DNA of 48,268 nucleotides from Candidatus Aenigmarchaeota archaeon LH_S4 (GTDB lineage: Archaea > Aenigmatarchaeota > Aenigmatarchaeia > QMZS01). The notes beneath the pieces are model-generated. The model made no database searches and was not told the origin of the DNA. It worked only from the letters and a program-made list of their open reading frames with translations. Both the position numbers and the translations under genes were made by a program. Shown piece by piece: positions 26,608 to 32,648 of the stretch. Numbering within the stretch: position 1 is the stretch's first letter; the number at the start of each line of letters is the position of its first letter. The stretch is from assembly GCA_023659975.1 (NCBI GenBank), contig JAGXOI010000001.1:1-48268 (forward strand). The letters are read 5' to 3'.

Positions 26608-26631
26608 AAGGAATAGAGTATCTATTTGTTG

Positions 26632-29705
<3,074 letters not shown>

Positions 29706-29902
29706 GCAACAAATAGATAATACTCTCCTTACACCTATTTTAATCATTGAGTACGAATAGATACTCTTTAGAAGATTTCTTAATATCAATAAGAAACCTT
29801 TCAACATAATATGATATAAAAGTTATATATAAGAAACCTTCACTAAAAACTTAGTTAATAATATCTAATATTGATAGATATTTACAGAATTAAACTAAAA
29901 TT

Positions 29903-30753: not shown

Positions 30754-31320
30754 ATAAACTAATAATTATCTTAATTATAATTTCTCAATAACAAATAACT
30801 ATATGAAACAATAGATTCAACTTTAGGAATTCCAGTAGAATAGAAGTTTAAGCTACCTTAATTTTTTATTTATTAAGGTGATCCAGCCGCACGTTCCCGT
30901 ACGGCTACCTTGTTACAACTTAGCCCTCCTTACAAAATCCAAGGTTGATTCTCCAAAAATTGAAGAAGCTCCCTTAAGACTCTATTCAGATGGCTTGATG
31001 GGCAGTGTGTGCAAGGAGCAGGGATAAATTCATCGAACGATAATGACGTTCGATTACTAGGGATTCCGTCGTCACAGGGGCAAGTTTCAGCCCCCGATCT
31101 GAACTAGGGTTGAGTTTAGGGATTAGCTTTCTCTTTCGAGATTGCAACTCTCTGTCTCAACCATTGTTGCGCGCGTGTAGCCCAAGAAGTTCGGGCCGTA
31201 CCGACCTGCCGTCGCCCACTCCTTCCTCCTGTTTACACAGGCAGTTCTTTTAGAGTACTCTGCTAAAGCAGATCGCAACTAAAAATGTGGATCTCGCTCG
31301 TTGCCAGACTTAACTGGACA

Positions 31321-31359
31321 TTTTTGTTGAGGTTATTAGGTTTTTACTTCCTAAAAAAC
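31321..31359 (-). other. ~39-nt AT-rich hairpin insertion in 16S (helix 35-37 region)
   Basis: GTGTTGT-ATGG[GTTTTTTAGGAAGTAAAAACCTAATAACCTCAACAAAAA]TGTCCAGTTAAGTCTGGCAACGAGCGAGA. Bacterial and archaeal consensus has only ~4 nt here. Confidence 0.5.
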
Positions 31360-31503
31360 CCATACAACACGAGCTGACGACGGCCATGCAACTCCTCTCA
31401 GCTAGTCTGGTAAGCTCTTTAGACTGACCTTCATCCAGCTGTCTTCCTTGGTAAGATTCTCGGTGTTGAGTCCAATTAAACCGCACACTGCACCCCTTAT
31501 GTA

Positions 31504-31546
<43 letters not shown>

Positions 31547-31647
31547 CCCCAGGTGGCCCGCTTAATGGTTTCCCTTCGAAACTGGCTAGTTCCTACAAAC
31601 CAGCCAACATCAAGCGGGCATCGTTTACAGCTAGGACTACCCGGGTA

Positions 31648-31706
31648 CTTAGGAACCTCTCTTTAATTAATATTTTTTAAATATTCATCTTTAGAAAAAG
31701 GTTCAA
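31648..31706 (-). other. 59-nt intron in the 16S 790 loop
   Basis: The universally conserved GGATTAGATACCCGGGTAGTCC is split as GGATTAGA[59 nt]TACCCGGGTAGTCC. The insert is AT-rich with terminal complementarity GAACCT...AGGTTC. Confidence 0.8.
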
Positions 31707-32648
31707 TCTAATCCGGATTGCTCCCCTAGCTTTCATCCCTCACCGTCAGAGTTATTCTAGTTAGATGCCTTCGCCATCGGTGGTCCCCTTAGGATCAAAG
31801 GATTTCACCCCTACCCCAAGAGTACCTCTAACCTCTCCTAATCTCTAGTCTAACAGTATTTCTAGCATTTTCTTGGTTAACAAGAAATTTAACCAGAAAC
31901 TTGCTAGACCGGCTACGGATGCTTTAAACCCAATAAAAGTGGTCACTACTTGTGGCTCGGGTATTACCGCGGCGGCTGCCACCCGTATTACCCACCACTT
32001 ATTCGATAAGCTTTTTTAACTTAACAAAAGTTATTCCTTTGTGGAATAACACTTAGAGTCCCCCTATCGCACTTAAGTGCATGGTAAAGGTTTCGCGCCT
32101 GCTGCACTCCGTAGGGCCTGGATTCTTGTCTCAGAATCCATCTCCGGGCTATTGCTCTCACAACCCGTACTAATTATCGGCTTGTCGGGCTTTTACCCCA
32201 ACAACAACCTAATCAGATATAATCCTATCCTTAGTTCAGATAGATTCTTTCCAGAACTCCTATCCTATCTTCTTTTATCCTCAGTTTCCCGAGATTATAG
32301 AAGTTCTAAGGGTAAGTTAATTATACTTTACTGAGCCGTTCGCACTTCAAAACCGAAGTTCCAAAGTACTTGCATGGCTTAGTCGAACTCTAATAGCAGT
32401 GACCTCCGGCAGGATCAACCGGAATTATAGCAGGGATTTGCTCCTTACTTATATACTCCTTCTATTCTACTTTGAAAGACTAAACTTATTTAATTTCAAA
32501 GTTTAATAATCTATTTCATTAGATTACTTCATTGCCTTTAAAGACTCTTCATAATAGTAAATATATAAAATTTAAATATAACCTAATTAGTTGTAAAAAT
32601 GTAATTTATAAGTATTTTATCCTTTTATATATTAAATAAAATTAAATT

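Follow-up and report, generated by a model that had tools for sequence, protein, structure and literature searches.

The 16S rRNA gene in the 48,268-nt stretch of DNA analyzed here (hereafter, the window), which comes from a tiny Aenigmatarchaeota (DPANN) archaeon, is interrupted in the 790 loop by a 59-nt insert that is very probably a short intron of the archaeal bulge-helix-bulge (BHB) type, without an ORF, in the pre-16S rRNA, as judged from sequence and structure comparisons; the presence of a second BHB-like mini-intron in the same gene supports this reading. The mechanism is not new, the archaeal BHB rRNA intron being a known kind of element; what is added are two sites, 793, which is widely used, and 1079/1080, both of which are absent from the published 13-locus map of archaeal 16S introns. 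The gene and the insert are located as follows:

30873-32425, minus strand: archaeal 16S rRNA gene (cmscan match to Rfam SSU_rRNA_archaea, RF01959, 1304.6 bits, model positions 1-1478)
31647-31705, minus strand: predicted intron 1, 59 nt, in the 790 loop of helix 24, between U793 and A794 in E. coli numbering (placed by the cmscan alignment and the BHB rule)

The gene, which is the only 16S match in the whole genome, a metagenome-assembled genome (MAG) of 103 contigs that is 72% complete, forms an archaeal rRNA operon with a 23S gene at 26621-29717 on the same strand (Rfam search); ARAGORN found no tRNA genes in the window. The length of the 16S gene is 1553 nt with the inserts and 1455 nt without the two mini-introns, compared to 1455-1460 nt in intron-less relatives. 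In the cmscan alignment, 61 gene bases stand between GGAUUAGAU and CCGGGUAG, where the model has 2, leaving an insert of 59 nt; the Rfam alignment thus confirms the presence of an insert of exactly this length in the 790 loop, as stated in an earlier note on this DNA, and places it at U793/A794 (E. coli numbering was taken from rrsA, in which GGATTAGAT corresponds to positions 785-793). The context reads ...CCGGAUUAGAU/UGAACC...GGUUCCUAAGU/ACCCGGGUAGUCC or, with more of the intron ends shown, ...CCGGAUUAGAU/UGAACCUUUUUC...GAGAGGUUCCUAAGU/ACCCGGGUAGUCC. A T is repeated at the junction, so that excision of 31648-31706, the span originally proposed, and of 31647-31705, the span that follows from the BHB rule, yields one and the same spliced product, and the original boundaries are right within this one-base ambiguity. 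The description of the insert as AT-rich, with complementary ends and no ORF, held as well: its GC content is 0.22, compared to 0.47 in the exons, its ends pair in the RNA fold as a 10-bp helix, GAACCUUUUU/AGAGAGGUUC, and 59 nt is too short for a meaningful ORF.

A BHB prediction, which the earlier note had suggested along with a comparison to related MAGs, yields a motif that falls on the conserved exon junction. In transcript order, its elements are:

31713-31717, minus strand: 5' strand of the outer helix, UCCGG; this helix is the native terminal stem of helix 24 (partner 31640-31644)
31708-31711, minus strand: exon strand of the central 4-bp helix, UUAG, at positions 788-791 (partner CUAA, 31649-31652)
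31705-31707, minus strand: 5' bulge (A, U, U), which has no pairing partners in the BHB-constrained fold; predicted cut after U31706
31695-31704, minus strand: 5' strand of the inner helix, GAACCUUUUU, paired over 10 bp with 31653-31662 in both the minimum free energy (MFE) and the centroid fold
31653-31662, minus strand: inner helix, 3' strand AGAGAGGUUC, directly abutting CUAA
31649-31652, minus strand: intron strand of the central 4-bp helix, CUAA, spanning 6 to 3 nt upstream of the 3' junction
31646-31648, minus strand: 3' bulge G, U, A; predicted cut after U31647
31640-31644, minus strand: outer helix, 3' strand CCGGG (partner 31713-31717)

Two 3-nt bulges, AUU and GUA, lie on opposite strands with the 4-bp helix UUAG/CUAA between them, and both are flanked by helices (hBHBh'), the inner one of 10 bp and the outer one of 5 bp. 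If each bulge is cut behind its second base, 31647-31705 would be removed and GGAUUAGAU/ACCCGGGUAGUCC exactly restored; the predicted spliced product, GGAUUAGAUACCCGGGUAGUCC, agrees with the Rfam consensus and has no mismatches to primer 806R. The motif is near-canonical, not strictly canonical, with C31645 facing A31712 in an A.C mismatch (A787.C795) next to the 3' bulge; because the outer helix begins with this mismatch, an alternative reading of the 3' bulge is 4 nt facing a 1-nt bulge, the form in which RNAfold renders it. In the MFE fold computed without constraints, UUAG and CUAA do not pair, and the BHB-constrained fold lies just 0.4 kcal/mol above this fold. With loose thresholds, a BHB scan reports 29 candidates for such a motif in this 16S and another 31 in the 23S, so that the motif alone is weak evidence; the intron 1 candidate has the longest inner helix among those in the 16S. 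What carries weight in the BHB case is the comparative data and the exact register of the motif with boundaries that the covariance model sets independently.

The comparison with related MAGs revealed inserts with covarying helices at the same site. Altogether, 45 distinct inserts of 31-76 nt were found at this position in other archaea, including DPANN phyla, Bathyarchaeota and Asgard archaea. A 16S match was obtained in 22 of 41 related genomes, and among the 20 in which the site is readable, it holds an insert of 35-76 nt in 8 and is empty in 12. A pattern scan over one genome per species added 41 more genuine cases of 31-61 nt, the size range to which the scan was limited, so that longer introns at the site are under-sampled; within the range of insert sizes searched, no homing endonuclease was seen at site 793. 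The records of these cases are labeled Aenigmatarchaeota, Micrarchaeota, Parvarchaeota, Nanoarchaeota, Woesearchaeota, Pacearchaeota and Bathyarchaeota, and two are labeled Asgard archaea; the names of short contigs are MAG labels that may be wrong, and the Asgard case rests on one of the two (Borrarchaeum, L045), which is on a 443-kb contig. One match, from a Sulfuricurvum MAG (L054), was dropped for having no rRNA context, and another, labeled Deferrimicrobium (L052), is flanked by 16S sequence of the archaeal type, its contig probably having been assigned to the wrong bin.

The pairing between the exon UUAG and the intron is retained in all 45 inserts, in two of them as U-G, with the proviso that 39 of the 45 were first gathered with a pattern that required CUAA. 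Because the first scan made this demand, a pattern free of it was run as a check on 371 genomes of the phylum; it recovered 21 inserts, each of which carries CUAA or CUAG at -6 to -3, the CUAG variant being compatible with wobble pairing, in that its G still pairs with U. Across the alignment of the 45 distinct inserts, 91.1% of the cells pair, compared to 69.7% in shuffles, and the covariation score is 0.534, compared to 0.134 for shuffled alignments (none of 500 reaches the observed value) and 0.04-0.14 when the partners are slid; a separate count of pairing agrees with these figures. All six pairs tested in the inner helix vary on both sides, the first of them being kept in 45 of 45 inserts with five pair types; in the outer helix, two columns covary, and in the central helix, 100% of the cells pair.

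Five of the introns at this site, which belong to one subfamily (L022, L050, L055, L074, L003), carry a stretch of 8-11 nt that is a perfect complement of the exon junction as ligated (for example, GGUAUCUAAUC, opposite GAUUAGAUACC), and in these five, the free MFE fold is 2-11 kcal/mol below the BHB-constrained one. Such an element is absent in intron 1, where the longest complement is 5 nt, a length equalled or exceeded by 39% of shuffles.

The identical 59 nt are found in the separately deposited genome of Aenigmarchaeota LH_S6, which represents a different species of the genus and the 16S of which is 99.3% identical to that of the window; together, the shared intron and this identity place the window's genome in the LH_S6 group. 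An artefact of assembly or binning might be suspected in a MAG of 103 contigs and 72% completeness, and the occurrence of the identical insert in another deposited assembly, and of a homologous one in two more species, speaks against it. With respect to a self-splicing (group I or II) intron, 59 nt is much too short for either ribozyme, and an Rfam search with intron 1 alone returned only matches with E > 0.3 (best 0.38), with scores far below the gathering thresholds. We therefore assign hardly any probability to an artefact or a self-splicing intron. A box C/D guide RNA within intron 1 was considered separately and dropped: there is no CUGA (box D), and the CD-box families of Rfam score 13.6-16.8 bits against cut-offs of 55-70. 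A blastn-short search of the whole genome with both 16S introns yielded no second copy at E <= 0.001, that is, no sign of paralogous spread inside this genome.

The two further species of the genus contain a diverged, 75-76-nt version of intron 1: the exons are 92% identical, compared to approximately 67% of the aligned columns in the intron, the ends of which are kept despite many indels. Such fast divergence of the intron relative to the exons fits a sequence that would be absent from the mature rRNA. In a tree of 17 sequences from the class, the genus is represented by four full-length sequences, all with the intron, which group together with full support, and the distribution of the intron requires at least 4 changes; the partial 16S of another member of the genus (G007), in which the site is empty, was left out of this tree. 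These data bear on the possibility that the insert is a lineage-specific hairpin retained in the mature 16S as an expansion segment. The insert does form a stable hairpin, and the rRNAs of DPANN archaea are unusual in many respects, but a retained segment provides no reason for an invariant CUA(A/G) located exactly 2 nt before the junction and pairing with 788-791, and it sits poorly with a length that ranges from 31 to 76 nt, an interior that diverges fast through indels, and a site that is vacant in most of the readable relatives and changes state repeatedly on the tree. Furthermore, the 790 loop is located at the interface between the ribosomal subunits, where one would expect a 59-nt hairpin to clash. 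We give very little credence to retention.

The genome encodes one tRNA-splicing endonuclease (EndA; G000:C14, ORF at L031:1135-1797), a 221-aa, alpha-type protein with both Pfam domains, PF02778 and PF01974, the closest solved relative of which is the alpha4 enzyme of M. jannaschii (E 7.6e-27). The Tyr, His and Lys that we take to be the catalytic residues of the M. jannaschii enzyme align with this EndA, and between the Tyr and the His, the latter has a Lys-containing, 6-residue insert, LKRGPK, compared to its M. jannaschii counterpart. The ligase RtcB, which joins the products of EndA in the splicing of archaeal tRNA and rRNA introns, is encoded as well (G000:C10, E 2e-172), so that the host possesses both the endonuclease and the ligase that a BHB intron calls for. 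The intron interpretation proposed in the earlier note is accordingly backed by a near-canonical BHB in exact register, by covariation across the 45 inserts, and by EndA and RtcB in the genome.

Given the observed motif, its register, its conservation and covariation, and both enzymes, we infer the following route for cutting, ligation and release of a circular product. In the transcript, CUAA near the 3' end of the intron would pair with the loop bases 788-791 (UUAG), so that a 4-bp helix with two 3-nt bulges would stack between the native stem of helix 24 and the 10-bp intron hairpin. EndA would then cleave each bulge behind its second base, and the exons would be joined by RtcB, restoring the universal loop sequence AUUAGAUAC, whereas the freed intron would probably be a circle. 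The structural and comparative evidence bears on recognition and cutting alone, not on ligation, and would equally suit a scheme, raised in the earlier note as a fragmented mature rRNA, in which EndA excises the insert and the exons stay unjoined, so that the mature 16S is broken within the 790 loop, its pieces being kept together by ribosomal proteins and helix 24. However, RtcB is present in the genome, and the excision register restores the loop exactly, a property that a nick would neither require nor forbid; we consider fragmentation to be very unlikely, and splicing with ligation remains the favored outcome.

It can be further speculated that the 793 mini-intron is more than a selfish passenger, with CUAA, paired with 788-791, masking the 790 loop until splicing by EndA and thus imposing a late-assembly checkpoint, given that the loop is needed in subunit joining and initiation; we regard both the masking and the checkpoint as unlikely. 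Were masking real, it could explain the occupancy of the same site across DPANN, Bathyarchaeota and Asgard archaea, and the subfamily with 8-11 nt of junction antisense would hold the loop still tighter.

The second putative intron of the gene is located as follows:

31324-31362, minus strand: predicted intron 2, 39 nt, in the tetraloop of helix 36, after position 1079 (41 bases compared to 2 in the model)

Here, the central helix is GUUG/CAAC, the 5' bulge is UAU, and a flush inner helix, GGGUU/AACCU, is combined with a weak outer helix; owing to the latter, the BHB is of the relaxed kind, and the MFE fold displays the helix-bulge-helix arrangement. Excision would produce GUU-GUAA-AAU, with GUAA as the GNRA tetraloop where GUGA is usual. 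Among the sampled relatives, intron 2 is shared only with LH_S6 (G010). In metagenome contigs, 24 of the 27 distinct inserts in the helix 36 loop, the two from the window and LH_S6 included, conform to the helix-bulge-helix rule, and most inserts in this loop are positioned one base further on.

More generally, mini-inserts occupy at least 5 different sites in the 16S genes of this genus, and the occupied sites differ by species. Three of these have no counterpart in the window: 60 nt that follow GGGUAAU and lie a short way 5' of the 515F site, in G004; 39 nt after GGUGGAA, in the region of the 690 loop, in G007; and 38 nt at approximately E. coli position 907/908 in both G002 and G004. By our reading of the alignments, each mini-insert of the genus has a 4-bp exon-intron helix in BHB register. 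These data show a rapid turnover of ORF-less mini-introns from species to species within a single DPANN genus, a finding relevant to the spread of BHB introns that lack homing endonucleases.

BHB introns, including short, ORF-less 'hairpin' forms, have been described in the 16S genes of Thermoproteales, Desulfurococcales and Aigarchaeota (Jay & Inskeep 2015, PMC4496867), at 13 loci: 374, 548, 722, 781, 803, 901, 908, 919, 978, 1093, 1205, 1213 and 1391. Intron 1 resembles these in having a BHB at the exon-intron junctions, in its presumable removal by the tRNA-splicing endonuclease and RtcB, in residing in a highly conserved, loop-proximal part of the 16S, where it breaks 'universal' primer sites, and in its patchy distribution among close relatives. 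The introns in the window differ in position, with intron 1 at 793/794, between loci 781 and 803, and intron 2 at 1079/1080, both unlisted, and in their hosts, which are mesophilic DPANN archaea, with the 793 site also used in Asgard archaea and Bathyarchaeota, as opposed to the thermophilic TACK hosts of the earlier set. We found no paper describing 16S intron site 793, and the present data add two sites, 793 and 1079/1080, to the map.

In DPANN archaea, BHB and group I introns have been reported from the rRNA genes of Woesearchaeota, Pacearchaeota, Micrarchaeota and Aenigmarchaeota (Nawrocki, Jones & Eddy 2018, PMC6125680). Those genes share with the one described here the presence of rRNA introns and the co-occurrence of BHB introns with others in one gene; however, that study is a catalogue of group I introns, mostly in the LSU, which shows BHB introns only schematically and contains no SSU 793 site or analysis of mini-introns. 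Kaneta et al. (2018, PMC5829648) deal with the BHB introns, both canonical and relaxed, of archaeal pre-tRNAs and with the types of EndA that cut them; in DPANN lineages that have many disrupted tRNA genes, they describe EndAs of the alpha4 type that carry an additional loop. The motif of 3-nt bulges and a 4-bp helix is the same, and the single alpha-type unit of the EndA described here is like that of the DPANN alpha4 enzymes, whereas the substrate in our case is rRNA and the motifs of intron 2 and of an insert in the 23S gene (see below) are relaxed. In this EndA, the 6-residue LKRGPK insert is the only candidate seen for a counterpart of the 'L3' loop of the DPANN enzymes. Insertions in the 16S were previously reported only in Crenarchaeota, Aigarchaeota and Micrarchaeota (Sakai et al. 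2022), and intron-containing 16S genes have been named as one reason why DPANN archaea escape primers (He et al. 2020).

The claim of the earlier note that the insert defeats standard amplicon primers proved correct. Primer 806R and its variants have four mismatches on the gene, all within the six bases at the primer 3' end, and none on the spliced sequence; for 785F, the gene offers no usable site, and 515F has one mismatch on the gene and on the spliced sequence alike. DNA-based V4 surveys with 806R or 785F would therefore miss this organism and other archaea with a site-793 intron, including approximately 6% of the sampled Aenigmatarchaeota genomes and a higher share of those with an assembled 16S, whereas RNA-based surveys would not miss the carriers of this intron.

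Several other features of the rRNA genes are worth mentioning. The 3' end of the 16S in the window (30873-30892, minus strand) reads ...GGAUCACCUUAA, whereas relatives end in ...CCUCAA, and the usual end is ...CCUCCU; because of this deviation, the anti-Shine-Dalgarno core is incomplete. In several relatives (G031, G018, G023, G035, G028 and G027), the 16S gene is 1.7-5.3 kb long, indicative of many or long further insertions. Finally, the 23S gene contains an insert at 27028-27164 (minus strand; 137 bases compared to 2 in the model) in the region of the helix 89 loop, after GAGAGUACA, with a possible central helix GUAC/GUAU and an inner helix that is not flush. Parts of this insert recur on contigs C6, C31, C26 and C97, so that it looks like a mobile mini-repeat.
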